Source: Candidatus Liptonbacteria bacterium
Lineage (GTDB): Bacteria; Patescibacteriota; Minisyncoccia; UBA6257; 2-01-FULL-56-20
DNA: 64,000 nt
Direction: 5' to 3'
Assembly (NCBI GenBank): GCA_016867315.1
Contig: VGJV01000002.1
Coordinates: 51,386 to 115,385 of the forward strand
The translations under genes were made by a program, and so were the position numbers. Of the stretch, positions 2,718-38,157 are shown one piece after another. The notes below the pieces were generated by a model, which saw only the letters and a program-made list of their open reading frames with translations, ran no database searches and was not told the origin of the DNA. Each line of letters begins with the position of its first letter. The stretch's first letter is position 1.

Positions 2718-3125
2718 TTAAAGCGCTAAGGCAGGATCCCTTCGTTCGTGCAGTTTAAGCCAACGAGCGAAACGCTCAGGAAGCTTCAAAAAATTTCCTT
2801 GTAAAGTCTTCAAATAGAGAGAAAGCGCTCCCTCGAAAATATGAGAAGCAATGTGCTGCAGCGCCATCCAACCCGCAAAAAGCAGGAGAAGCGCGGCGAA
2901 CACTCCCCATGCACTCATCGTGGCGAGCGAAAAACCTTTCAAGGCCTCGAGATAAAAACCGGAAGTGGAAACCGCATCCCCTGGAGGACACGCCACACCC
3001 CCATGTGCACTCGCGGCCAAACATCCTCCTCCGTGATTCGCTCCATGATTCATACCGAAAGCCCCCAGCACCGCGATGGATACGAAAGCTAATATAAGAA
3101 ATACAGCTCCTGCTTTCCGGCTCAT
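2718..3125 (-). CDS. Hypothetical membrane protein with a His/Gly-rich segment (possible metal binding)
   Basis: Trimmed to the MSRKAG start. Two TM segments and an HGANHGGGC...AHGGVACPPGD motif. Confidence 0.4.
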   Translation of the reverse strand: MSRKAGAVFLILAFVSIAVLGAFGMNHGANHGGGCLAASAHGGVACPPGDAVSTSGFYLEALKGFSLATMSAWGVFAALLLLFAGWMALQHIASHIFEGALSLYLKTLQGNFLKLPERFARWLKLHERRDPALAL

Positions 3126-3198
3126 ATTCCAATTATAGTATTCTCCCCTAAAAAACAAACCCCATCCATGCGGGGTTAGGAAACCATGCAATTCTACT

Positions 3199-4107
3199 CT
3201 AGCTCTTAAGGTAACGCCGCACTGCGATAAAACTGGAGAGAGCCCCGATACCGATCCCGAAAAGTAATTGATACCCCAAAAGAGTAATGAAGTTCGCGAT
3301 AAAGTATTGGAAAAGGTTCAATCCAGGAATAAATACCGCGAGATATGGGGAAGCAAAGTAAATTGCAGGAGCAATGAAGATAAGACTGGCGACCGCAGCA
3401 ATTGCTCCGGAAATAATGCCTTCAACCATATAAGGGCCGCGCACTAACGCATTCGAAGCCCCTACTACTCGCATAATCCCGATTTCTTCGCGGTTCGAGT
3501 AGATTGCGAGCCGAATAGTATTGAACACCACGAGGCCTGCGATAAGAGAAAGAAGGAGGGTAAGCGTAAACCCTGCTTTATTGACGTTATCGATAATTCG
3601 CGCGAGTCGGTCGATCACCACCTGATTTTTGGCATAACTCACGTTATCGATGTAATTCGAAAGATTCGGCGCGGAAAGATATCGGGCAATAGTCGCATAC
3701 TGTTCCGGCTTCTGAGCCTTGATACTTAAAGAGGCCTGAAAAGGATTGGTATTCAACTCGTTGACAGCCTGGCTGATAACCTGCTCATTTTTATGCGCAG
3801 TTTTAAAAAGCTCGAGCGCCTTGTCGCTCGAAACGTAATTCACGTCTTTCACCTCCGAAAGATTCTCCAGGGATTGTTTGATATTCAAGATCTGATCTTC
3901 GGAAGTATTGTTTTTGAAATACACACTGATATCGATCTTGTCCTGGATGGAAACCACCGCATGCTGAGTCGTAACGCGGAAAAGAATAAGACCTACGAAT
4001 ACCATAAGCGCCAAAATAGTAATAGCCACCGTGGCCGTCGAGAGCCAGCCATTTCGGCGAAAACCTTTGAATCCGAACTGTACGATGCGAAAGACAATAG
4101 TAAACAT
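3199..4107 (-). CDS. ftsX: Cell division ABC transporter permease FtsX
   Basis: 302 aa, four TM helices with a large extracytoplasmic loop, immediately downstream of ftsE. Confidence 0.8.
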   Translation of the reverse strand: MFTIVFRIVQFGFKGFRRNGWLSTATVAITILALMVFVGLILFRVTTQHAVVSIQDKIDISVYFKNNTSEDQILNIKQSLENLSEVKDVNYVSSDKALELFKTAHKNEQVISQAVNELNTNPFQASLSIKAQKPEQYATIARYLSAPNLSNYIDNVSYAKNQVVIDRLARIIDNVNKAGFTLTLLLSLIAGLVVFNTIRLAIYSNREEIGIMRVVGASNALVRGPYMVEGIISGAIAAVASLIFIAPAIYFASPYLAVFIPGLNLFQYFIANFITLLGYQLLFGIGIGALSSFIAVRRYLKS

Positions 4108-4214: not shown

Positions 4215-4898
4215 TTACACAAGGATATATTTGCCTTTAACCTCGTCCCGGAACACCCGCCCTCGATCGAGCGTAATCACACGCTTTTCGAGATTATTGA
4301 TGATTTCCTTGTCGTGGGTGGCAAGTATTACCGTCGTCCCTAATTGATTGATTTTCTCCAATAATTTAATGATTTCCGCAGTATGAAATGGATCAAGATT
4401 CCCCGTCGGCTCATCCGCAATAATGACTTCCGGCCGGTGGATCATCGCCCGCGCGATTGCCACCCGCTGCTTCTCCCCTCCTGAAAGCTCATGCGGAAAA
4501 TTCTTGCTCTTCTCGGCCAGCCCTACCATATCCAAAACCTGCGGTACCAACTCATTAATCTCCCGCTGAGCCCGCCCCTCTACCTCGAGCGCAAATGCGA
4601 CGTTCTCAAATGCAGTTTTAGTGGGAAGCAATCGGAAATCCTGGAACACCACTCCGATATGGCGACGAAATTGGGGTAATTCGCTGGAACCCAATTTATT
4701 GACTTCATATTGACCAAAAAACACCCGGCCGCGGCTGGGTTTCTCTTCTCCAATTAAAAGCTTAATAAGCGTAGACTTTCCGGCTCCCGATCTCCCCGCA
4801 AGCGAAACGAACTCTCCCTGTTTTATCTCTAACGTAACATCCTCAAGCGCTGGACTTAAGTGATCATAAATTTTAGCTACCCCTTGAAAAAAAATCAT
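4215..4898 (-). CDS. ftsE: Cell division ATP-binding protein FtsE
   Basis: Walker [13 protein letters not shown] signature [14 protein letters not shown], Walker [12 protein letters not shown]. Trimmed to the [11 protein letters not shown] start. Confidence 0.85.
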
Positions 4899-4971
4899 AG
4901 GCAAGAAAAAAAGCCATTCCGGCCCCCCCATTCTACCCTACCTTTGACGAAGTTGTCCACTTCTCGTGAAT

Positions 4972-6004
4972 TTAAACTCCTTTTTCTATTTCCGCTTCAA
5001 TAAATAAATCAAGTTCTCCATTTAAAACCTTATCCACCTGCGAAGTTTCCACTTCAGTGCGGTGATCTTTCACTAATTGATACGGATTCAAAACATACGA
5101 ACGGAGCTGATTGCCCCACTCTGGCTTTACTTTTACCCGCAACGCAGAAAGTTCTTCCACATGATGCTGCTCCATAAGCTGAAAAATCTTGGCCTTCAAG
5201 AGCCGGAGCGCATATTCCCGATTCTGCTGCTGACTTCGCTCTACCCGCGCGCTCACGGCGAGCCCAGTAGGCAAATGCACCACGCGTACTGCCGTTTCCA
5301 CCTTGTTCACATTTTGTCCTCCCGGACCCCCCGCCCGGGAAAATTCCCACTTCAAATCAGCTTCCGGGATTTGAATTTTTGACTCCTCGACGGAAGGCAA
5401 ATCCGGCACGACTTCCACAAGCGCAAAAGCCGTATGCCGCAGCTGCTTTGCGGAAAAGGGAGACATCCGCACCAAGCGGTGCACTCCCGATTCTTTTTTC
5501 AGATAGCCGTAGGCATATTGTCCCTTCATCTCGATCATGCGCCCCCGAGGATTATCATCCAGAATCCGGGTTTTCCATCCATTCCGCTCAGCATAGCGAA
5601 TATACATTTCTCCAAGCATTCGTGCCCAGTCTTCCGCATCTTCCCCTCCTGCTCCGGGATATACCGAGAGCACCGCCGCTTGCCCGTCATATTTACCCTT
5701 AAAAAGCTCCTCGAGTTCCAGCGTCCGAAATTTCCGGCGTATTTCGTAAAATAAATTCTCCTCAAAGTTACTCTGGAGAGTCGCAAGTCCATCCTCAATT
5801 TCTTTGTACCGGGAAAGCAAATCCCGAAGAATCCCCCCGCGTTTCAGCTTCTCTTCGGCTGCCGCCTTATCCTGCCAAAAACCAGGCACGGCCATATCCG
5901 CCTCCAATTCTTTTAGTTCTTTTTCCTTTACCGCGAGGTCAAAGCCGCCCGCCTAACCGGCGGGCCTCAGTCGCAAGTTCTTCCAAATTCTCTCGCGAAT
6001 CCAT
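4972..6004 (-). CDS. prfB: Peptide chain release factor 2, with a programmed +1 ribosomal frameshift
   Basis: GGQ motif (RAGGPGGQNVNKVETAVR). A 21-codon ORF0 (MDSRENLEELATEARRLGGRL) ends at CUU UGA C (5944-5938) preceded by the SD-like AGGCGGG. The +1 frame then continues to the 4972 stop. Confidence 0.85.
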
Positions 6005-12285: not shown

Positions 12286-12426
12286 TGTTATCCATACTAC
12301 CAGCTTTTTAGGCCCTTACAAAATGGAACCGTCTCTTCTTCCAACATAAATGAAGTCCTGTTTCTGCAAGGATTCTCGAACCACTTTCCCAACTAAGTGA
12401 AATCCTGCTTTTCTCGAACGTGGTCC

Positions 12427-12522
12427 AATATGCGAAGTCCTGTTTCGTGCAGAGATTCTCGGAGTGCGTCGGCACGAGAGCATAGCGGTCGCGAAAGCCC
12501 TTCGCGAACCGCGTCCCCGCAA
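12427..12522. repeat. GC-rich structured repeat, copy 1 (conserved core plus a covarying closing helix). Partial copies lie at 12342-12372 and 12387-12410
   Basis: Core GATTCTCGGAGTGCGTCGGCACGAGAGCATAGCGGTCGCGAAAGCCCTTCGCGAACCGCGTCCCC. Flanked by gtcctgtttcgtgc ... gcaagaaataggac (14-bp helix). Lies between the greA stop and the lysS start. Confidence 0.6.
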
Positions 12523-12542
12523 GAAATAGGACAAGCCCCTTT

Positions 12543-15876: not shown

Positions 15877-17148
15877 TTATTGGATCCCTTCGTATTCACG
15901 CACCGTAAGCTGCGAATCAATCTGCCTCATGGTCTCCAAAGCCACCGCCACTACAATAAGCAACGCCGTACCGCTTACGGTAAGCACCGCTACCCCCGTG
16001 ATCGCCTGCACAATGATAGGCAAAATCGCAATGAGCCCCAAAAACACGGCCCCGAAGAAAGTCACACGATTCACGGTTTTTTTGAAGAATTCTTCAGTCA
16101 TTTCTCCCGGTCGGATTCCCGGAATAAACCCTCCTCCTCGCTGTAAATTCTTGGCTACCTCCGATGGATTGAATGTGATCGAAGTGTAGAAATAGGTGAA
16201 TGCGAACACAAGCGAGAAGTAGATGATCCCGTAGAACATTCGGTTATTAAGCACACTCGTCACGATCTCATTAAGTTTGACTCCCACCCCGGGAGAAATG
16301 GCCGTCATCACCTGCGCGATGAATTGCGGGAAAAGGAATACTGAGATTGCGAAGATCAAAGGAATCATTCCTGCTTGGTTTACTTTAAGCGGCAGGTAGC
16401 TCGATACTCCGCCGAACATCTTCATGCCCCGCACACGTCGAGCGTACGCCACAGGCACTTTCCGCTCCCCCTCGTTCAAATACACGACTCCAAAGATCAC
16501 AAGAAGCAACACTAAAAGGAATCCGATGTAGGTAGCCAATTTCGCGGGCGTGTAGGAAAGGAGCAGCAAACGCACATTCGCCGGCAAGCCCGCCACAATT
16601 CCTGCAAGGATGATAAGCGAAATGCCATTCCCCACTTTTTGCTCAGTGATAAGTTCTCCGAGCCACACTGCGATCATTGCTCCCGCGGTGATCACCACCA
16701 CAGTCGTAAGCAAAAGCCAAGCATCCGGTCGATCGAGAACTCCCGAACTCATAAGGAGTGCAAGGAATCCGTACGCCTGAAGCACTGCAAGCGGCACGGT
16801 GAGCATTCGGGAATATTGATTAAATTTCGCACGTCCTTGGGCTCCTTCCTCGTAATAAAGTTGCTTGAACTTCGGGAAAATGAGCGTCAAAAGCTGCATG
16901 ATAATTGTCGCCGTGATGTACGGTCCTACCCCCAACATCATGACCGACAAACTTTCTAATCCTCCTCCTGAAAAAAAGTTCAAAAAACCCAAGAGCTGGT
17001 TGGAGTTGAAATATTGCTGGAGTCTGTCCGCATCCACCCCGGGAATAGGAATAGCGGCAAAGAAACGGTATGCCACAAGTACCCCTAATACGATAAGGAT
17101 TTTGTTGCGGATTTCAGGGATTCTAAAAATTTGGAGGATTCGATTCAT
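15877..17148 (-). CDS. secY: Preprotein translocase subunit SecY
   Basis: 10 TM segments and SecY signature regions. Trimmed to MNRILQIFRIPEIRNKIL, because the longer ORF would overlap the upstream repeat element. Confidence 0.9.
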   Translation of the reverse strand: MNRILQIFRIPEIRNKILIVLGVLVAYRFFAAIPIPGVDADRLQQYFNSNQLLGFLNFFSGGGLESLSVMMLGVGPYITATIIMQLLTLIFPKFKQLYYEEGAQGRAKFNQYSRMLTVPLAVLQAYGFLALLMSSGVLDRPDAWLLLTTVVVITAGAMIAVWLGELITEQKVGNGISLIILAGIVAGLPANVRLLLLSYTPAKLATYIGFLLVLLLVIFGVVYLNEGERKVPVAYARRVRGMKMFGGVSSYLPLKVNQAGMIPLIFAISVFLFPQFIAQVMTAISPGVGVKLNEIVTSVLNNRMFYGIIYFSLVFAFTYFYTSITFNPSEVAKNLQRGGGFIPGIRPGEMTEEFFKKTVNRVTFFGAVFLGLIAILPIIVQAITGVAVLTVSGTALLIVVAVALETMRQIDSQLTVREYEGIQ

Positions 17149-17171
17149 AACGTTAAGTAGTAAAAAGAGAC

Positions 17172-17272
17172 GTCGGCTTCGGGTGGAAAAGGGATTCTCG
17201 GAGCGCGGCGGCGCGAGAGCATAGCGGCTGCGAAAGCCCATCGCGGACCGCGTCCCTTTGCCATACGAAGCC
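17172..17272. repeat. GC-rich structured repeat, copy 2 (between rplO and secY)
   Basis: Core GGGATTCTCGGAGCGCGGCGGCGCGAGAGCATAGCGGCTGCGAAAGCCCATCGCGGACCGCGTCCC. Flanked by cggcttcgggtggaaaaggga ... tccctttgccatacgaagccg (21-bp helix, 19 pairs). Confidence 0.6.
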
Positions 17273-17291
17273 GCGCCGGAGCATACTCATA

Positions 17292-17735
17292 TTATTGCAC
17301 TTTTCCTCCTGCCTTCTCAATCTGAGCCTTGGCAGACTTAGATGTCGGCAAACCGTGAAGCTCGAGAGAGGCCGAAAGCTCTCCCCCTCCCAAAATTTTC
17401 ACTGCGCCGCGAAACCCCGGTGGAATAATACCTGCCTTCTGAAGTACCTCGCGGTTCACCACCAAAGGTGCCTTGCTGTCATGAAGCGGCGCTAACTTCT
17501 TTCCGAGAATTCCTACTTGAATCGGTATCGGCTTAGCCTCAATCGGCTTATTGCGAAACCCTCGACGCTTAGGAAGTCGAATAATGAGATCGCGCACCGC
17601 CGGCCGGATACGCCGCCCGGATCGGGATTTCTGCCCCTTTACTCCGCGTCCGGAATAACTGCCTCGCTTACCGCTGCGCCCAATGCGCTGCGCTCGCTTT
17701 TTAGCCGGATTTTTTTGTAATTCGTGTAATTGCAT
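17292..17735 (-). CDS. rplO: 50S ribosomal protein L15
   Basis: Gly/Arg-rich N-terminus and L15 family conservation. Position in the spc operon. Confidence 0.9.
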   Translation of the reverse strand: MQLHELQKNPAKKRAQRIGRSGKRGSYSGRGVKGQKSRSGRRIRPAVRDLIIRLPKRRGFRNKPIEAKPIPIQVGILGKKLAPLHDSKAPLVVNREVLQKAGIIPPGFRGAVKILGGGELSASLELHGLPTSKSAKAQIEKAGGKVQ

Positions 17736-24640: not shown

Positions 24641-25284
24641 GAAAGGTGATAATGTCGAGTCAAAAATGGCACCGCCTCTTTCGCGATAAATACTCGCTTG
24701 TGATTCAAAATGTCATACACGTTCAAGCTTGAAGGGTGAATGGCTTTTACCTTGGGTAAATTCTGCGCCGCCCGGAACGTGTTTTTCTCTTCCACTGCCG
24801 GAATAAGCAAGGCGTCAAACCGCTTCACCTTTGACGATACGCTCGTGAGTGTCCGGAGCGCGGAAGCGAGCATCTTAGTCTTCGATTCCTTCGGTGCCAA
24901 TCCATCCACGATTTTCACTTCCCCGCTGTGGAATTTCTTCGCGAGAATAGAAAAGATCGCCGTGCGGTTCATTTTCTTATTGATCTTCTGAGTGTAATCC
25001 CGCTCCTTGTTCGGCCCATGAGATTTTCCTCCTCCCACCCACAACGGAGATCGGATCGAACCGTGCCGCGCGCGGCCGGTACCCTTTTGTCTCCAGGGTT
25101 TCTTTCCTCCTCCGCGCACCTCGCCGCGGCCTTTGGCGTGTGCCCACGGCCGTCGGCTGTTCGCACGATGCGCAGTCACAACTTGCGCCACAAGCGCAGG
25201 CCGCCACCGTTCGCCAAAAAGCGAATCGGGGATTTCGATCGATTCCACTATTTTATTCTCGATGTTATATACGTCTACCTTCAT
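24637..25284 (-). CDS. rplD: 50S ribosomal protein L4
   Basis: Family conservation. 4-nt overlap with rplW. Confidence 0.9.
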   Translation of the reverse strand: MKVDVYNIENKIVESIEIPDSLFGERWRPALVAQVVTAHRANSRRPWAHAKGRGEVRGGGKKPWRQKGTGRARHGSIRSPLWVGGGKSHGPNKERDYTQKINKKMNRTAIFSILAKKFHSGEVKIVDGLAPKESKTKMLASALRTLTSVSSKVKRFDALLIPAVEEKNTFRAAQNLPKVKAIHPSSLNVYDILNHKRVFIAKEAVPFLTRHYHLS

Positions 25285-25292
25285 GGAAATTA

Positions 25293-25832
25293 TTATCGCG
25301 TCTCAATTTCGAGAAGACTCCCGCGCATGCCGGGCACCGCTCCTTTGACCATTAAAAGACTTCTCTCCTTATCTACTCCCACAATTTTCAAATTTTTGAT
25401 CGTCACCCGTTCCACTCCCATGTGTCCCGCCATCCGTCGGCCGGGAATAACGCGCTGCGGAGTTGTGTTGCCAATAGAACCAGGCATCCGATAGCGGTTC
25501 TTTTGTCCGTGGGTCTTCGGCCCTCCGCCGAACCCGTGCCGCTTTACTACCCCCTGGAATCCGCGTCCTTTGGTAAACGCACTCACACGCACAACGTCGC
25601 CTTCTTTGAACGCCGACACGTCTATCGTGTCTCCTTTTTTGAGTTCTCCGGTTCCTTTGAATTCCTTGCGCGCCTTCCCCAGCTGGACCTGTACTGCACT
25701 GTACCCATCCTTCTCGGGAACCCGCACAAGGGAAATAGTATTCGGTTCGGCCTTAATAACCGTGACCGGAATCACTTTTTTATCTTGCCAAATTTGGCTC
25801 ATTTTAAATTTTTTCCCCAAAATGAATGACAT
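25293..25832 (-). CDS. rplC: 50S ribosomal protein L3
   Basis: Trimmed to MSFILGKKFKMSQIW, the classic L3 N-terminus. Confidence 0.85.
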   Translation of the reverse strand: MSFILGKKFKMSQIWQDKKVIPVTVIKAEPNTISLVRVPEKDGYSAVQVQLGKARKEFKGTGELKKGDTIDVSAFKEGDVVRVSAFTKGRGFQGVVKRHGFGGGPKTHGQKNRYRMPGSIGNTTPQRVIPGRRMAGHMGVERVTIKNLKIVGVDKERSLLMVKGAVPGMRGSLLEIETR

Positions 25833-26049
25833 CCAATTCGCATTATTTGCCTCCATTCGAATTATTCGCGATTACTCCTAAATAAAAACTGCCCAAGGCA
25901 CGTACCTTTAGGCAGGGACGTCCTTGTGCAACCCAGCTCTTTACGCTTTAGGAATCCAGCACAACATCCCTAGAAAATTCTCACATCGAGAAGTTATACG
26001 GGACAATGTGTTGTTGCCTAAAGGGCTGGGCCATTAAAGAGACTGGAAC

Positions 26050-26080
26050 ATGATAAGCCAAATGGCAAAAAGTGTCAAAC
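26050..26080 (-). terminator. Hairpin terminator immediately after the RelE/ParE toxin gene
   Basis: aaaaagtAGTGTttgACACTttttgcc is a perfect palindrome flanked by A/T runs. Confidence 0.55.
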
Positions 26081-26081
26081 A

Positions 26082-26360
26082 CTACTTTTTGGGTTTCTTG
26101 TATACCTTATCCCGCAACGCAATGCGATGAATCGTAACAATATGTGATTCGTGTTCCATCTCGTAAACCACTCGCCAATCTCCTACACGCAGCTTAAAAT
26201 ATCCGTGCCACTCGTGGCCAAGCGCCTCATGAACAACCGAAGGAAAATTCTCGCGAAACCACTCCAATTTGCCTAAAATCCTTCTCTGTACTGGCGCGTC
26301 CAAAGAGCGTAAATCTTCCTCTCCGGTGAGAGTGAAAGTAAATTTCCAGCCCGAGGACAT
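26082..26360 (-). CDS. Type II toxin, RelE/ParE family
   Basis: 92 aa. FKLRVGDWRVVYEMEHESHIVTIHRIALRDKVY is typical of the RelE/ParE fold (plasmid stabilisation system protein). Confidence 0.75.
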   Translation of the reverse strand: MSSGWKFTFTLTGEEDLRSLDAPVQRRILGKLEWFRENFPSVVHEALGHEWHGYFKLRVGDWRVVYEMEHESHIVTIHRIALRDKVYKKPKK

Positions 26361-26368
26361 TCTATAAA

Positions 26369-26569
26369 CTAGAGCGAACTCACTACCTCCTCAAAAGTAC
26401 GGATCCTGCCTTGCTTTTTTTCCGCAGCAGATTTCTTGAGTCTCTTTACAAACGCGGAGCGAATCTCAAGTCCTTTGTCAGAATCGATAAGCAATTCGCG
26501 CAATGCACGCTGCACCGCCCGCTCCACCACTGCTTCGATTTTTTTTTCTTCAATAGTAATGCGAGCCAT
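26369..26569 (-). CDS. Putative antitoxin (ribbon-helix-helix or Phd-like), partner of the RelE/ParE toxin
   Basis: 66 aa, helical and charged. Stop lies 9 nt upstream of the toxin start. Confidence 0.6.
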   Translation of the reverse strand: MARITIEEKKIEAVVERAVQRALRELLIDSDKGLEIRSAFVKRLKKSAAEKKQGRIRTFEEVVSSL

Positions 26570-26980
26570 GCTTTCACTCTACCTCCTAAAAATGGAAAGT
26601 CAATGAAGCTTGGTCTGAAGCGTACGCGTATTCCCATGTTTCAAGAGCCCTCGATACGATTCGAGCGTTGCCGATTTTCCATTATTCGCCACATTCTTGA
26701 ACATCCGCCGCTTCGTCGCCGTGCGGAGTACGCGATGGTCGGGAAAATGGAAGGTGTTCATACTTTTTTTTGCCACGGGGACTTGGACGCACACTCGCTC
26801 TATGCGAGGGCGTTGCATCACTTATTGATTTTGCCGCAGCACTCATTCCGCGACTGTCTGCTTCTTCTACATCAATCCGCGACATGAATGCTGGGGCAAA
26901 AAACCTCTCAAAAGATTGGGTAAATCATACCATTTCTCAATAAAAAACGCAAGGATTAAAGGATTAGCCTTGAAAACACA

Positions 26981-27007
26981 AACGCACCCTTTCGAGTGCG
27001 TTTTGTT
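26981..27007. terminator. Intrinsic terminator-like hairpin downstream of rpsJ and the copy-3 repeat
   Basis: aacgcac-cctttcga-gtgcgtt stem-loop followed by ttttgtt. On the minus strand it is followed by gtgttttc. Confidence 0.55.
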
Positions 27008-27020
27008 ACTAATCCAATAA

Positions 27021-27055
27021 GCGAAGTCCTGTTCCAGATGGGGATTCTCGAACCC
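27021..27055. repeat. Partial copy of the GC-rich structured repeat (5' helix strand plus the first 9 nt of the core)
   Basis: gcgaagtcctgttccagatggggattctcgaaccc is the same truncation point (ctcgaacc) as the two partial copies at 12.34-12.41 kb. Confidence 0.5.
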
Positions 27056-27099
27056 AATAAAAGGAACGGGGGCATATTCTCTTACAGCTAACAAAGCGA

Positions 27100-27195
27100 A
27101 ATCCTGCCGCTTGTGGGGATTGTCGGAGCGCGGCGGCGCGAGACATAGCGCTGCGAGAGCCCCTCGCAGATAGCGTCCCCACAAGTGACAGGATG
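27100..27195. repeat. GC-rich structured repeat, copy 3 (3' of rpsJ)
   Basis: Core GGGATTGTCGGAGCGCGGCGGCGCGAGACATAGCGCTGCGAGAGCCCCTCGCAGATAGCGTCCCC. Flanked by atcctgccgcttgtgggga ... tccccacaagtgacaggat (19-bp helix, one mismatch, one G-U). Confidence 0.6.
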
Positions 27196-27203
27196 AGCGC
27201 CTC

Positions 27204-27536
27204 TTATACCATTTTAATTTCGACGTCGACCCCAGCCGGCAGGTTCAGGTTCCCAAGAGATTCAATGATCTTCTGATTCGGATTCATGATATCGATGAGC
27301 CGCTTGTGCATCCGAAGCTCGAACTGCTCCCGCGAATCCTTGTGTACGAAGGTAGAACGGTTCACGGTATACTTCCGCGTCTCGGTGGGCAACGGAATTG
27401 GCCCCACCACCTTCGCATCGTGCCGCTCTGCGGCATCGATGATCTGGCGCGCAGAAGAATCGATCAGCTTGTGGTCGTAGGAACGAATCCGCAAGCGGAG
27501 CTTCTGATGAAAATCGTTTTCCTGTTTCTTAGCCAT
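27204..27536 (-). CDS. rpsJ: 30S ribosomal protein S10
   Basis: 110 aa. Family conservation. Confidence 0.9.
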
Positions 27537-27562
27537 GAGAAAGGAGCTGCGTACCTAAATGC

Positions 27563-28762
27563 TTATTTATTGATCTTAGTTACGACTCCTGCACCTACGG
27601 TCTTTCCTCCTTCGCGGATGGCAAAGCGCTGTTTCTCTTCGAGTGCGACAGGGGAGATAAGTTTCACTGCGAGCTTTACCGTATCGCCGGGCATCACCAT
27701 TTCCATTCCCTCAGGAAGCGTGATTTCTCCCGTTACATCGGTCGTGCGGATATAGAATTGCGGCTTGTAGCCTTTGAAGAACGGCGAGTGCCGGCCACCT
27801 TCCTCTTTGGAAAGTACATACACTTCACAGTCAAAATCAGTATGAGGAGTCACGCTGCCGGGCTTCGCGATAACCTGTCCACGCTCCACGTCTTCTTTCT
27901 TCAAACCTCGGAGAAGGATTCCGACGTTGTCGCCGGCCATGGCATCATCCAAGAGCTTGTTAAACATTTCGATTCCGGTCACGACGGTCTTTTGCGTCGG
28001 CCGAAGTCCGATAGCTTCCACTTCGTCGTTCACTTTGATCTTTCCGCGTTCCGCGCGGCCCGTTACCACGGTTCCGCGGCCTTCGATCGAGAAGATGTCT
28101 TCGATAGGCATAAGGAACGGCTTGTCCAAGTCTCGCACCGGGTCCGGCACGAAGCTGTCCAAAGCGGCCATAAGATCCAGGATCGGCTTCGCATCTGCTT
28201 CATCGGCAGACTTCGAGTTCAATGCTTTCAAAGCTGAACCACGGATGATAGGAGTCGTGTCTCCGGGGAATTCATATTTCTTCAAAAGTTCGCGTACTTC
28301 GGATTCCACGAGGTCCACAAGCTCTGGGTCATCCACTTGATCCATTTTGTTCAAGAACACTACGATCGCCGGCACGCCTACTTGGCGGGCAAGCAAGATA
28401 TGCTCCCGAGTCTGAGGCATCGGTCCGTCTGCGGCAGACACCACAAGCACCGCTCCGTCCATTTGGGCGGCACCGGTAATCATGTTCTTGATATAGTCTG
28501 CGTGTCCCGGAGCATCGATGTGCGCATAGTGGCGCTTCTCCGACTCATACTCCGAGTGGTGAAGGGCGATGGTGATTCCACGCGCCTTCTCTTCGGGGGC
28601 GTTGTCAATTTGATCGACTTTCTCTTCCTTCTTCGCCCAACCTTTCATAAAGAGGACGTGGGTAATGGCGGCCGTAAGGGTCGTCTTCCCGTGGTCCACG
28701 TGGCCGATAGTCCCCACGTTCACGTGCGGCTTTGTTCGGCTAAACTTTTCCTTCTCTGCCAT
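27563..28762 (-). CDS. tuf: Elongation factor Tu
   Basis: [15 protein letters not shown]-like DAPGHADY and NKMD G-motifs. 399 aa. Confidence 0.95.
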
Positions 28763-28868: not shown

Positions 28869-30971
28869 TTATTTCTTTTTTCCCTCGATGATGAGCTGCG
28901 CCACGTTCTGCGGCGTGGGTTCATAGTGGTCGAACTCCATCGTAAATGATCCTCTCCCCTGCGTCATAGATCGAAGTTCCGTCGCATACCCGAACATTTC
29001 AGAAAGCGGCACCTTCGCATCGATCACTTTGATGTTCACACGATCACCCAGGTTTTCGATCTTGCCTCGCTTCGAATTCACGTTTCCAGTAACTTCCCCA
29101 AGGAAATCCGGCGGCACGATCACTTGAAGCTTCATGACCGGTTCCAAAATCACAGGATTGGCGCGCTTCACTGCTTCCTGGAAGGCCATCGAACCTGCAA
29201 TCTTGAACGCCGCTTCCGAAGAGTCCACTTCGTGGAAGGACCCGTCATAGAGCTCCACCTCGACATCGATCATCGGATAATGCGCGAGTACCCCGCGATC
29301 GAGCGCTTCTTTGACTCCCTTTTCTACTGCCGGAATGAATTCGCGGGGAATCACTCCTCCCTTGATCGCATCCACAAACACAAAGCCTGTCCCGCGCTCA
29401 AGCGATTTAACTTTGAGCCGCACATGTCCGTATTGTCCGCGTCCACCGGATTGCTTGATATACTTGCCTTCCGCTTCGGCAGACCCGGTGATGGTTTCTT
29501 TGTATGCCACCTGCGGACGTCCCACGGATGCTTCCACCCCGAATTCCCGCTTCATGCGGTCCACGATGATTTCCAAATGCAATTCGCCCATACCCGAAAT
29601 GATAGTCTCTCCCGTCTCGGGGTCTCCCGCCACTCGGAATGTAGGATCTTCTTCCGCCAACCGGCGAAGGGCGGTACCCATTTTTTCCTGGTCAGCTTTG
29701 GTTTTGGGTTCGATGCGGATTCCGATCACGGGCTCGGGGAAGGTGATCTTCTCAAGCACAATAAGCTTCTCCGTATCACAAAGCGTGTCTCCGGTGGTAG
29801 TGCCTTTGAGCCCCACGATTGCGGCAATTTCTCCCGCATATACTTCTTCCACTTCTTCCCGCTGGTTTGCGTGCAAGCGCACGACGCGGCCGATACGTTC
29901 CTGCACTCCTTTCGTGGAGTTAAATACATACGATCCCCGCTTCAACACTCCCGCATAGTTGCGGAAGAAGGTAAGCGATCCGACGAATGGGTCCGCCGCG
30001 ATTTTGAACGCGAGCGCCGTGAAAGGTTCGGCATCATCCGCCGTGCGGGTAAGCTCTCCTCCTTTTTCATCAGTCCCTTTGACCGGCGGTAAGTCCAGTG
30101 GCGAGGGGAGATAATCCACCACCGCATCGAGTACGAACTGCACGCCCTTGTTTTTGAGTGCTGATCCGCAAAGTACGGGTACGATTTTGTAGCCAATCAC
30201 CATCTTTCGAAGCGTCCGGCGCAGGTCTTCGAGACCGATTTCTTTCCCTTCGAGGTAGCTCGCCATTAAGGCGTCGTCTCCCTCCACAATCTTCTCGACA
30301 AGCTGGTGCCGCCATTTCTCCACTTCTTCTTTCATAGTGTCCGGAATAGGGATTTCTTTGATGTTCTCCCCGTGCTCTCCTTCAAAGGCATACGCCTTCA
30401 TGCGCATAAGATCGACGATACCTCGGTGCTCCGATTCGAGTCCGATAGGCAGCTGAATGGGGTAAGCGTTCGGCGTGAGCCGCTCCCGGATCGCCTCGAA
30501 ACTTCCCCAGAAGCTTGCACCCATCCGGTCCATTTTGTTGATAAAGCAAAGCCGCGGCACATGATATTCGTCCGCATAATGCCAGTTGGTTTCGGTCTGC
30601 GGTTCCACACCGCTCACGCCGTCGAATACGACGACTGCGCCATCGAGCACACGGAGCGACCGCTTCACCTCCACGGTAAAGTCGATGTGGCCTGGCGTAT
30701 CGATAAGGTTGATGCGATGCGAAAAATTCTTATCGTTCCCGCGATAGGTGGGCACCCAAAACGCGGTAGTAGCCGCAGCGGTAATCGTGATACCACGCTC
30801 CCGTTCCTGTTCCATCCAGTCCATCACGGTGTCCCCCGTGTGCACCTCTCCGATCTTGTGCGACACTCCCGTATAAAAAAGAATCCGCTCGGAAACGGTA
30901 GTTTTTCCGGCGTCAATATGCGCCACAATTCCTATATTACGAATCTTCTCGATAGGGTATAACCTTGCCAT
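28869..30971 (-). CDS. fusA: Elongation factor G
   Basis: [17 protein letters not shown] and NKMD motifs. 700 aa. Confidence 0.95.
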
Positions 30972-38053: not shown

Positions 38054-38143
38054 ATATGTCCGGCGGGGATTCTCGGAGCGCGACGGCGTGAGAGTATAGC
38101 GGCCGCGAGAGCCCCGCGCGGACCGCGTCCCCGCAGGACATAT
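38054..38143. repeat. GC-rich structured repeat, copy 4 (between the Kelch gene and the small membrane protein gene)
   Basis: Core GGGATTCTCGGAGCGCGACGGCGTGAGAGTATAGCGGCCGCGAGAGCCCCGCGCGGACCGCGTCCCC. Flanked by atatgtccggcgggga ... tccccgcaggacatat (16-bp helix, one mismatch). Confidence 0.6.
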
Positions 38144-38157
38144 GGGAAGCAACAGAA

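Follow-up and report, generated by a model that had tools for sequence, protein, structure and literature searches.

A RelE-family toxin gene and a candidate antitoxin gene in the rpsJ-rplC spacer of a Candidatus Liptonbacteria lineage

How does a small toxin gene come to lie among the genes for ribosomal proteins, and what, if anything, does it interrupt there? The question is raised by a contig of Candidatus Liptonbacteria bacterium (GCA_016867315.1, contig VGJV01000002.1), from which a stretch of 64,000 nucleotides (nt), referred to below as the window, was analyzed. On its minus strand, the list of open reading frames (ORFs) gives the order fusA, tuf, rpsJ, a gap of 634 nt, a 66-aa ORF, a 92-aa ORF, a gap of 225 nt, rplC, rplD, rplW, and rplB. 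The original prediction, made from the sequence alone, interpreted the two small ORFs as a RelE/ParE toxin-antitoxin (TA) module in the middle of the S10 operon. Both ORFs, the 66-aa one at 26369-26569 and the 92-aa one at 26082-26360, are real; with 8 nt between them, they are encoded on the minus strand in the rpsJ-rplC interval. The window is 100% identical across both junctions to more than 10 independent assemblies from ENA, JGI, Logan, and NCBI, neither TA gene varies among them, and thus the arrangement is no assembly artefact or chimera. We consider it probable that the pair is a horizontally acquired, intact type II TA module of the RelE type that, in one Candidatus Liptonbacteria lineage, resides in a spacer separating two transcription units.

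The toxin and its partner protein

The 92-aa protein (26082-26360, minus strand) is assigned to the RelE family by Pfam and PHROG profiles, PDB sequence matches, an AlphaFold (AF2) model with a Foldseek search, and a residue alignment. It passes the Pfam model PF05016 (29.6 bits vs. a gathering score of 23, E 1.1e-6, profile positions 6-87 of 89) and matches PHROG 1213, 'RelE-like toxin' (54 bits, E 3e-14), and its exact sequence is public at NCBI as 'type II toxin-antitoxin system RelE/ParE family toxin [Candidatus Liptonbacteria bacterium]'. Among PDB sequences, the matches at E <= 0.1 are only of the RelE type (2khe, 9g12, and 3g5o_B), and the weaker matches include two more RelE proteins, 1wmi and 3bpq. 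The AF2 model, which was built on seven homologues (mean predicted local distance difference test, pLDDT, 80.9), comprises a strand (residues 6-9), two helices (11-19 and 22-42), and a three-stranded antiparallel sheet (54-59, 62-69, and 74-82), i.e., the fold of the superfamily. All 14 PDB matches of this model at E <= 1e-3 are RelE/ParE-superfamily toxins. Ranks 1-12 are occupied exclusively by RelE proteins from Thermus, Pyrococcus, M. tuberculosis, Methanococcus, and E. coli (E 3e-6 to 5e-4), ribosome-bound RelE included; YafQ appears first at rank 13, followed by HigB2 and YoeB, and ParE appears from rank 34 (E 6e-3). The superfamily assignment of the original prediction therefore stands on PF05016, PHROG 1213, the RelE structures, and the NCBI name.

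The catalytic residues of E. coli RelE, which are K52, K54, R61, R81, and Y87 according to work on the RelE-ribosome structure, were compared with the toxin family in a MAFFT alignment that includes the E. coli RelE sequence, checked against 4v7k. The family-invariant toxin residues K56, R63, R83, and Y87 align with K54, R61, R81, and Y87, respectively, with an uncertain register for R81/R83 at 24% identity. Sequence and model together predict an mRNA endonuclease of the RelE kind and not a gyrase poison of the ParE kind.

The 66-aa protein (26369-26569, minus strand) is described in public databases as a hypothetical protein of the same organism, and its three-helix model is all-helical. A HMMER search of 1.84 billion representative proteins identified 48 relatives at E<1e-3, nearly all of them 61-72 aa long, with the consensus ..KKIxxxVRxxVxxxLRExLSDPDxGLELxxxFxxRLKKS..G....L..VL..Y. 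Pfam gave just a marginal and implausible match to SRP54_N (22.8 bits) and a weak one to DUF2683 (6 of 39 family members), while NCBIfam, PADLOC, and PHROGs gave no meaningful match. The family profile has no match below E 0.06 among PDB sequences, the three-helix model has none below E 3.7 in the Foldseek fold search, and no relatives were found in viral contigs.

The assignment of this protein as an antitoxin comes from its gene neighborhood. Its homologues are encoded immediately upstream of toxin homologues in three unrelated contexts: at locus L008 next to a PaaX_M gene (antitoxin 54%, toxin 68% identical), at L009/L010 next to an 829-aa gene and RecO (36% and 50%, respectively), and at L110 next to GIY-YIG and pseudouridine synthase genes (46% and 45%, respectively). 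The toxin homologues on L008, L009, and L110 also pass PF05016. Since the pairing is kept across these three contexts, we regard the 66-aa protein as the cognate antitoxin, and its sequence relatives as a candidate new antitoxin family that is absent from Pfam, NCBIfam, and PDB. The profile searches suggested by the original prediction thus had a divided outcome: the toxin passed PF05016, and the expected RHH (ribbon-helix-helix) or Phd type of the partner had to be abandoned, as no known antitoxin family or fold was matched in Pfam, NCBIfam, the PDB profile search, or Foldseek.

The spacer between rpsJ and rplC

The genes that flank the pair were identified with NCBIfam equivalog models. Ribosomal protein S10 is encoded by rpsJ (27204-27536, minus strand; NF001861, 146 bits; TIGR01049, 138 bits), the last gene of a fusA-tuf-rpsJ unit (fusA, 28869-30971, and tuf, 27563-28762, both on the minus strand in the ORF list), and ribosomal protein L3 is encoded by rplC (25293-25856, minus strand; TIGR03625, 197 bits). 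The junction of these genes was surveyed in 80 genome loci found with S10, which are the matches listed, and closer relatives were reached through L3 homologues. Neither TA protein occurs at the junction in any of the 80 loci, in which the rpsJ-rplC gap is -27 to about +130 nt for most loci labelled outside the Candidate Phyla Radiation (CPR) and 31-400 nt for CPR genomes. The gap is likewise free of genes in the closer relatives L107/L108 (179 nt; S10 92%, L3 73% identical), the Liptonbacteria metagenome-assembled genome (MAG) L116 (168 nt; 91% and 72%), and L109 (255 nt; 81% and 75%). The 225 nt before rplC in the window (25857-26081) are homologous to the rplC upstream region of the relatives, with 81-83% DNA identity to L105-L108, whereas positions 26570-27203 have no match in any fetched relative. 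The lineage-specific block therefore covers about 26082-27203, and the insertion proposed in the original prediction is borne out by all of these junctions.

The DNA shared with the relatives carries its own predicted transcription signals. A promoter of the form TTGACA-17-TATCAT, with 11 of 12 consensus matches, lies at 26050-26078 (minus strand); L107 and L117 have it at the same site, and its TTGAC and TAnnAT elements are invariant in six genomes. The stop codon of the toxin gene (26082-26084) lies 3 nt upstream of the -35 box (26073-26078). Downstream of the promoter, alignments delineate a conserved rplC leader (25857-26049, minus strand) in which a TCTCTTTAATGG box and a variable hairpin precede a CACAAGGA box (25921-25928, minus strand), and in which the last element is an attenuator-like hairpin (25889-25915) with its T run (25880-25888, minus strand); the terminator scan has hits at the equivalent place in L107 and L117, and the leader of the relatives ends in such a hairpin and T run 10-25 nt before rplC. 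Promoter and leader together span 25857-26078 (minus strand) in the window, 350-507 in L105, 2862-3000 in L107, about 2795-3000 in L109, about 2870-3000 in L116, and 2848-3000 in L117. At the other end of the spacer, rpsJ is followed by a GC-rich terminator hairpin detected by the scan in L117 and by terminator-like GC hairpins read directly in L107 and L109. An uninterrupted S10 operon would have neither terminator nor promoter between rpsJ and rplC, and six genomes, the window included, have a predicted promoter and leader before rplC. Because of the rpsJ terminator and the separate rplC promoter and leader, rpsJ and rplC are assigned, on these predicted signals, to separate transcription units in this clade, and the module sits in the spacer between them rather than in the middle of an operon, as had been claimed. 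In E. coli, rpsJ to rpsQ form one transcript attenuated by L4. The order tuf-rpsJ-rplC-rplD-rplW-rplB and a terminator-type leader before the rplD-containing block are common to both arrangements; however, in this clade the promoter and the attenuator-like leader precede rplC instead of rpsJ, and rpsJ goes with tuf and is then followed by a terminator.

Is the spacer occupied repeatedly? The extra DNA in the window lies exactly between the position of the rpsJ terminator and the rplC promoter, and so does that of L117 (GCA_028871935.1, contig JAGWLW010000025.1; L3 73% identical), where three genes stand between rpsJ and rplC (1305-2757). They encode an excisionase-family helix-turn-helix (HTH) protein (TIGR01764), a Doc (death-on-curing) toxin (TIGR01550, 52.8 bits vs. 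a cut-off of 38.65), and a HEPN RiboL-PSP-like protein below the Pfam cut-off; the cassette starts with a palindrome (cacaggttatcatatgataacctgtg). At this position, L117 holds another TA module directed at translation, unrelated to the one in the window. Like the pair in the window, this Phd-Doc-type cargo is a small addiction-type module of two genes with a translation-targeting toxin in the interval between the rpsJ terminator and the rplC promoter. It differs in its families (excisionase-type HTH and Fic/Doc kinase) and in the additional HEPN-like gene, and the unrelated families argue for independent acquisition rather than shared ancestry. Other cargo was found in the rpsJ-rplC gap of L045 (Paceibacterota; DinB-like and NUDIX genes, 2889-3886) and of L037 (a 219-aa gene without assigned function, 4423-5082). 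The Actinomycetota MAG L042 has a 399-aa ORF on the opposite strand (4399-5598), the only occupied gap among the listed loci labelled as other phyla, and in L105 the rplC promoter is preceded by unrelated DNA of at least 350 nt. The hot spot of the original prediction is thus supported, as a recurrent occupancy of this one spacer, by the different TA pair of L117 and by the cargo of L045 and L037.

Integration hot spots and defence islands flanked by core genes have been described in enterobacteria and pseudomonads, and they share with the rpsJ-rplC site a fixed position between core genes and accessory or defence cargo that differs among relatives. The latter site differs in its small scale (0.5-1.8 kb, one to three genes), in having no integrase, tRNA, or attachment site, and in its genome-reduced CPR hosts. 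Plausibly, the site is favored because it is transcriptionally neutral, its essential and conserved flanks would serve as recombination anchors and protect against deletion, and addiction modules would resist loss. The ribosomal protein cluster has a permissive seam, between the rpsJ terminator and the rplC promoter, in which toxin and defence cassettes accumulate even in genome-reduced CPR bacteria; this bears on the persistence of accessory genes in streamlined genomes and matters wherever ribosomal protein synteny is used in binning or phylogenomics.

The proposed mode of action and its rivals

By analogy with RelE, the toxin would enter the ribosomal A site and cleave mRNA under translation, and the 66-aa helical antitoxin would neutralize it by direct binding. 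The toxin gene lacks a separate ribosome-binding site, so its translation probably depends on coupling to the antitoxin gene. Together with about 630 nt of unrelated DNA, the pair lies between the rpsJ terminator and the rplC promoter. Essential, highly conserved genes border this spacer, and different small cassettes of a selfish or defence type recur in it among related Patescibacteria. Because no terminator was found between the toxin gene and the rplC promoter, TA transcripts are expected to enter the rplC leader and to end at, or read through, its attenuator-like hairpin. For the same reason the description of the pair as a terminator-bounded unit holds on one side only, where a terminator-like hairpin lies about 410 nt before the antitoxin gene.

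CPR genomes are known to carry TA modules, NCBI already annotates this toxin, which is an ordinary member of the RelE family, and its presumed mechanism is not new. The size and fold of the toxin, its best matches, and the putative equivalents of K54/R61/R81/Y87 agree with the RelBE systems of E. coli, T. thermophilus, M. tuberculosis, and archaea, and a closely spaced upstream antitoxin gene is the usual RelBE order. The differences from RelBE are the partner, which is not RelB and has no RHH, Phd/YefM, or other known antitoxin domain but belongs to an unclassified helical family of about 65 aa, and, in the toxin, the missing K52 equivalent and a score below the TIGR02385 cut-off. With ParDE and PaaR2-PaaA2-ParE2 the pair shares the toxin superfamily PF05016, although ParE structures match the toxin model much less well than RelE. 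PaaA2 may resemble the 66-aa partner, in that it is a short, helical antitoxin devoid of a DNA-binding domain, with a separate protein as the regulator. No regulator gene was found beside the pair, and the upstream ORF at 26600-26821 has no homologue in Pfam or PHROG. The modest novelties are thus the unclassified antitoxin family, the position at a seam of the ribosomal protein cluster, and the fact that different toxin cassettes recur at this seam; the literature searched does not describe a TA module at the rpsJ-rplC junction.

Several observations weigh against an acquired and functional RelE-type module. The toxin scores 21.9 bits with the NCBIfam model TIGR02385 (RelE_StbE), below the cut-off of 27.9, and K52 of E. 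coli RelE falls in a gap of the MAFFT alignment. None of the known antitoxin families (RelB/RHH, Phd/YefM, HTH-Xre, AbrB/MazE, and ParD) matches the 66-aa protein by profile or fold, and no DNA-binding domain was recognized in it by profile, PDB, or fold searches, so that autoregulation is only a possibility. The sole candidates for start signals of the pair are a weak promoter-like site and an AGGAGG box that overlaps it. As to acquisition, no compositional anomaly was detected (GC content 0.463 in the TA pair vs. 0.493 +/- 0.034 in the window), no mobility gene or flanking repeat marking an insertion was found, matching DNA in the closest TA relative ends within the toxin coding sequence, and some close relatives may lie beyond the S10 matches listed. 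A phage or plasmid origin was rejected, as searches of phage and plasmid collections yielded no matching DNA and the viral contigs no antitoxin relative. The hot-spot claim rests on 4 occupied junctions of about 25 in Patescibacteria, a count that covers the rpsJ-rplC spacer alone.

Could the toxin instead be a gyrase poison of the ParE type? The name 'ParE_toxin' of its best Pfam match, the low RelE_StbE score, and the ParE structures at ranks 34-49 of the fold matches point in this direction, but PF05016 spans the whole RelE/ParE superfamily and NCBI names the protein 'RelE/ParE family toxin'. In addition, the strongest sequence and fold matches are all RelE (2khe, 9g12, 3g5o, 1wmi, 3bpq, 4fxe, and 4v7k), as is the PHROG name, and the C-terminal R..VY motif and the KLR..R motif align with the RelE catalytic residues, which ParE proteins are not known to have; we therefore regard a ParE-type toxin as very unlikely. 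A remnant with intact ORFs, neither expressed nor toxic, is quite unlikely as well. It would account for the want of a confident promoter, the unusually long spacing of 12 nt between the Shine-Dalgarno box and the ATG, the low codon score of the toxin gene (0.126 bits per codon, a value close to the 5th percentile for gene chunks read in frame), and the missing counterpart of K52; however, both ORFs are full length, all family-invariant residues and the 8-nt spacing typical of coupled TA genes are retained, and the genes are invariant in the assemblies mentioned above. Alternatively, as in the refuting case named by the original prediction, the pair might be a domesticated, clade-wide ribosome-associated or regulatory factor instead of a mobile module, as its place among translation genes and its complete conservation in many samples of this species would allow. 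This is highly improbable, given that the pair is absent from every junction of a relative that was examined, its homologues occur in unrelated contexts elsewhere, and L117 has a different TA family at the same spot.

The preferred reading of an acquired module leaves room for two views of the site. One takes the hot spot for chance, i.e., a few unrelated insertions in a long and poorly constrained CPR spacer, in line with the small number of occupied Patescibacteria junctions (4 of about 25) and with a 274-aa ORF without Pfam or PADLOC match that L109 has between fusA and tuf (151-975), which indicates that other seams of the str/S10 cluster accept insertions too. On the other side, the window and L117 have two different TA families in one and the same interval, from the terminator position to the conserved promoter, and the junctions of the about 55 listed loci labelled as other phyla are mostly shorter than 100 nt, with the exception of L042; we find chance rather doubtful, if far from absurd. 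The opposite view is unlikely. In it, the short spacer between the rpsJ terminator and a hitherto undescribed rplC promoter under attenuator control would serve, in a clade of Parcubacteria, as a dedicated landing pad that captures translation-targeting toxin modules again and again (RelE in the window, Doc plus HEPN in L117). For want of a terminator behind them, their transcripts would enter the leader, TA expression and ribosomal protein synthesis would be physically coupled, and the RelE partner would stand for a new antitoxin family without a DNA-binding domain.

The rplC leader, the upstream region and the structured repeat

The analysis also exposed the attenuator-like rplC leader, which is conserved and has no Rfam counterpart; the search of positions 25000-28000 gave nothing beyond chance hairpin matches. 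An L4 leader before rplC has been listed only in Archaeoglobi (Eckert & Weinberg, 2020; PMC7247131). The order of leader elements is TTGACA-17-TAtcAT, the TCTCTTTAATGG box, the variable hairpin, CA(C/G)AAGGA ... CGCC(C/G)GG ... CCTT(G/C)GGCGA, and the T run. Here CCTT-Z-GGCG can pair either with CGCC-Y, which forms the terminator, or with X-AAGG, and the positions X, Y, and Z have changed together in L117 (G, G, and C vs. C, C, and G in the other five genomes). This covariation fits a terminator/antiterminator switch, possibly a ribosomal protein attenuator with a logic comparable to that of the E. coli S10 leader. Apart from three unrelated matches, a metagenome scan for the conserved rplC promoter motif (RTTCCAGTCTCTTTAATGG) retrieved no more than two contigs, both from the L107 species. 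The start of rplC itself is ambiguous, as the longest ORF begins at 25856 (187 aa) and the NCBI protein (P0009, 179 aa) at M9 (25832); the shorter form is favored by the relatives.

Directly after the rpsJ stop codon, a full copy of a GC-rich structured repeat, a long hairpin with inverted arms at 27101-27119 and 27176-27194, occupies 27094-27203 (minus strand) and takes the place of the simple terminator hairpin of the relatives; the fold z-score for 26940-27210 is -5.0. The repeat is about 70-110 nt long with the core GGGGATTCTCGGAGCGCG.CGGCGCGAGAGCATAGCGGC.GCGAGAGCCCC.CGCGGACCGCGTCCCC, and the window has three more full copies (12424-12540, 17188-17275, and 38063-38150). All four share one orientation, and each begins 0-16 nt past the stop codon of a gene on the minus strand. 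Among them is a copy between a 147-aa ORF (17292-17735) and a 454-aa ORF (15877-17241), putatively rplO and secY. A partial copy that corresponds to the low-coordinate (plus-strand 5') end lies at 27013-27050 (minus strand; 79% identical to 12424-12461 and 75% to 27094-27125). The repeat is absent from the loci of the relatives, and an Rfam search of the copy at 27094-27203, the one of the four that was searched, gave no match covering it. It may be a repetitive extragenic palindrome (REP)-like 3' terminator or stabilizer.

The partial copy is followed by the terminator-like hairpin mentioned above (26980-27003, minus strand; consensus scan), with a stem of 10 bp and a weak T run, and then by a lineage-specific spacer (26570-26979, no strand assigned), which holds a hairpin with 24-nt arms (26829-26901) and a polymorphic spot (26682-26692). 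The original prediction had described 26570-26980 as apparently non-coding, possibly with a decayed gene. The former part agrees with our results: positions 26570-26979 have no Pfam or PHROG match and no convincing gene, each of the two ORFs called there by gene finders forms a singleton cluster among about 15 billion collected proteins, and the upstream region folds moderately better than shuffled sequences (z = -2.1). As to the decayed gene, blastn and tblastx searches of 26570-27203 against the fetched relatives and the rest of the window matched only the structured repeat, and codon bias is the sole coding hint. It concerns a 73-aa, GTG-started frame (26600-26821, minus strand) that ends 31 nt before the antitoxin gene. 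With 0.246 bits per codon this frame scores like a real gene, but it is without a homologue and no gene finder called it; a decayed or orphan small gene is thus conceivable here.

At the polymorphic spot, at least nine Logan contigs from different runs either stop at 26693 or start at 26681, which leaves an 11-nt gap at 26682-26692 and suggests a small insertion/deletion or a cluster of nucleotide substitutions in the spacer. For these breaks, we rejected TA-plus and TA-minus alleles in one population as the cause, since a gap of this size points to a small polymorphism and not to the presence or absence of the whole pair. The contigs of sample 3300020109 / SRR7979709 break instead at 26684-26705 and 26065-26066, immediately beyond the ends of the TA cassette. 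In this one sample such alleles are conceivable, but no contig lacking the TA pair was recovered among the assemblies examined.

Next to the antitoxin gene, the weak promoter-like site reads TTGACT-16-TAGAGT (26576-26603, minus strand; scan, 9 of 12 matches) and overlaps the AGGAGG Shine-Dalgarno-like box (26582-26587, minus strand), which lies 12 nt before the antitoxin ATG. Transcription of the pair by read-through from rpsJ is also conceivable. A 14-mer of the form TTTT(G/T)AGGAGGTAG occurs on the minus strand just upstream of the antitoxin start (26579-26592) and again inside the 3' end of the antitoxin gene (26383-26396); the latter copy is 22 nt before the toxin start, and no ribosome-binding site lies closer. 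Upstream of the antitoxin gene, the motif AAWATGGAARRT occurs twice (26589-26600 and 26744-26755), against an expectation of 0.12 for the entire window. An imperfect inverted copy (26673-26686) lies between them, and these copies may represent an operator or a chance occurrence.

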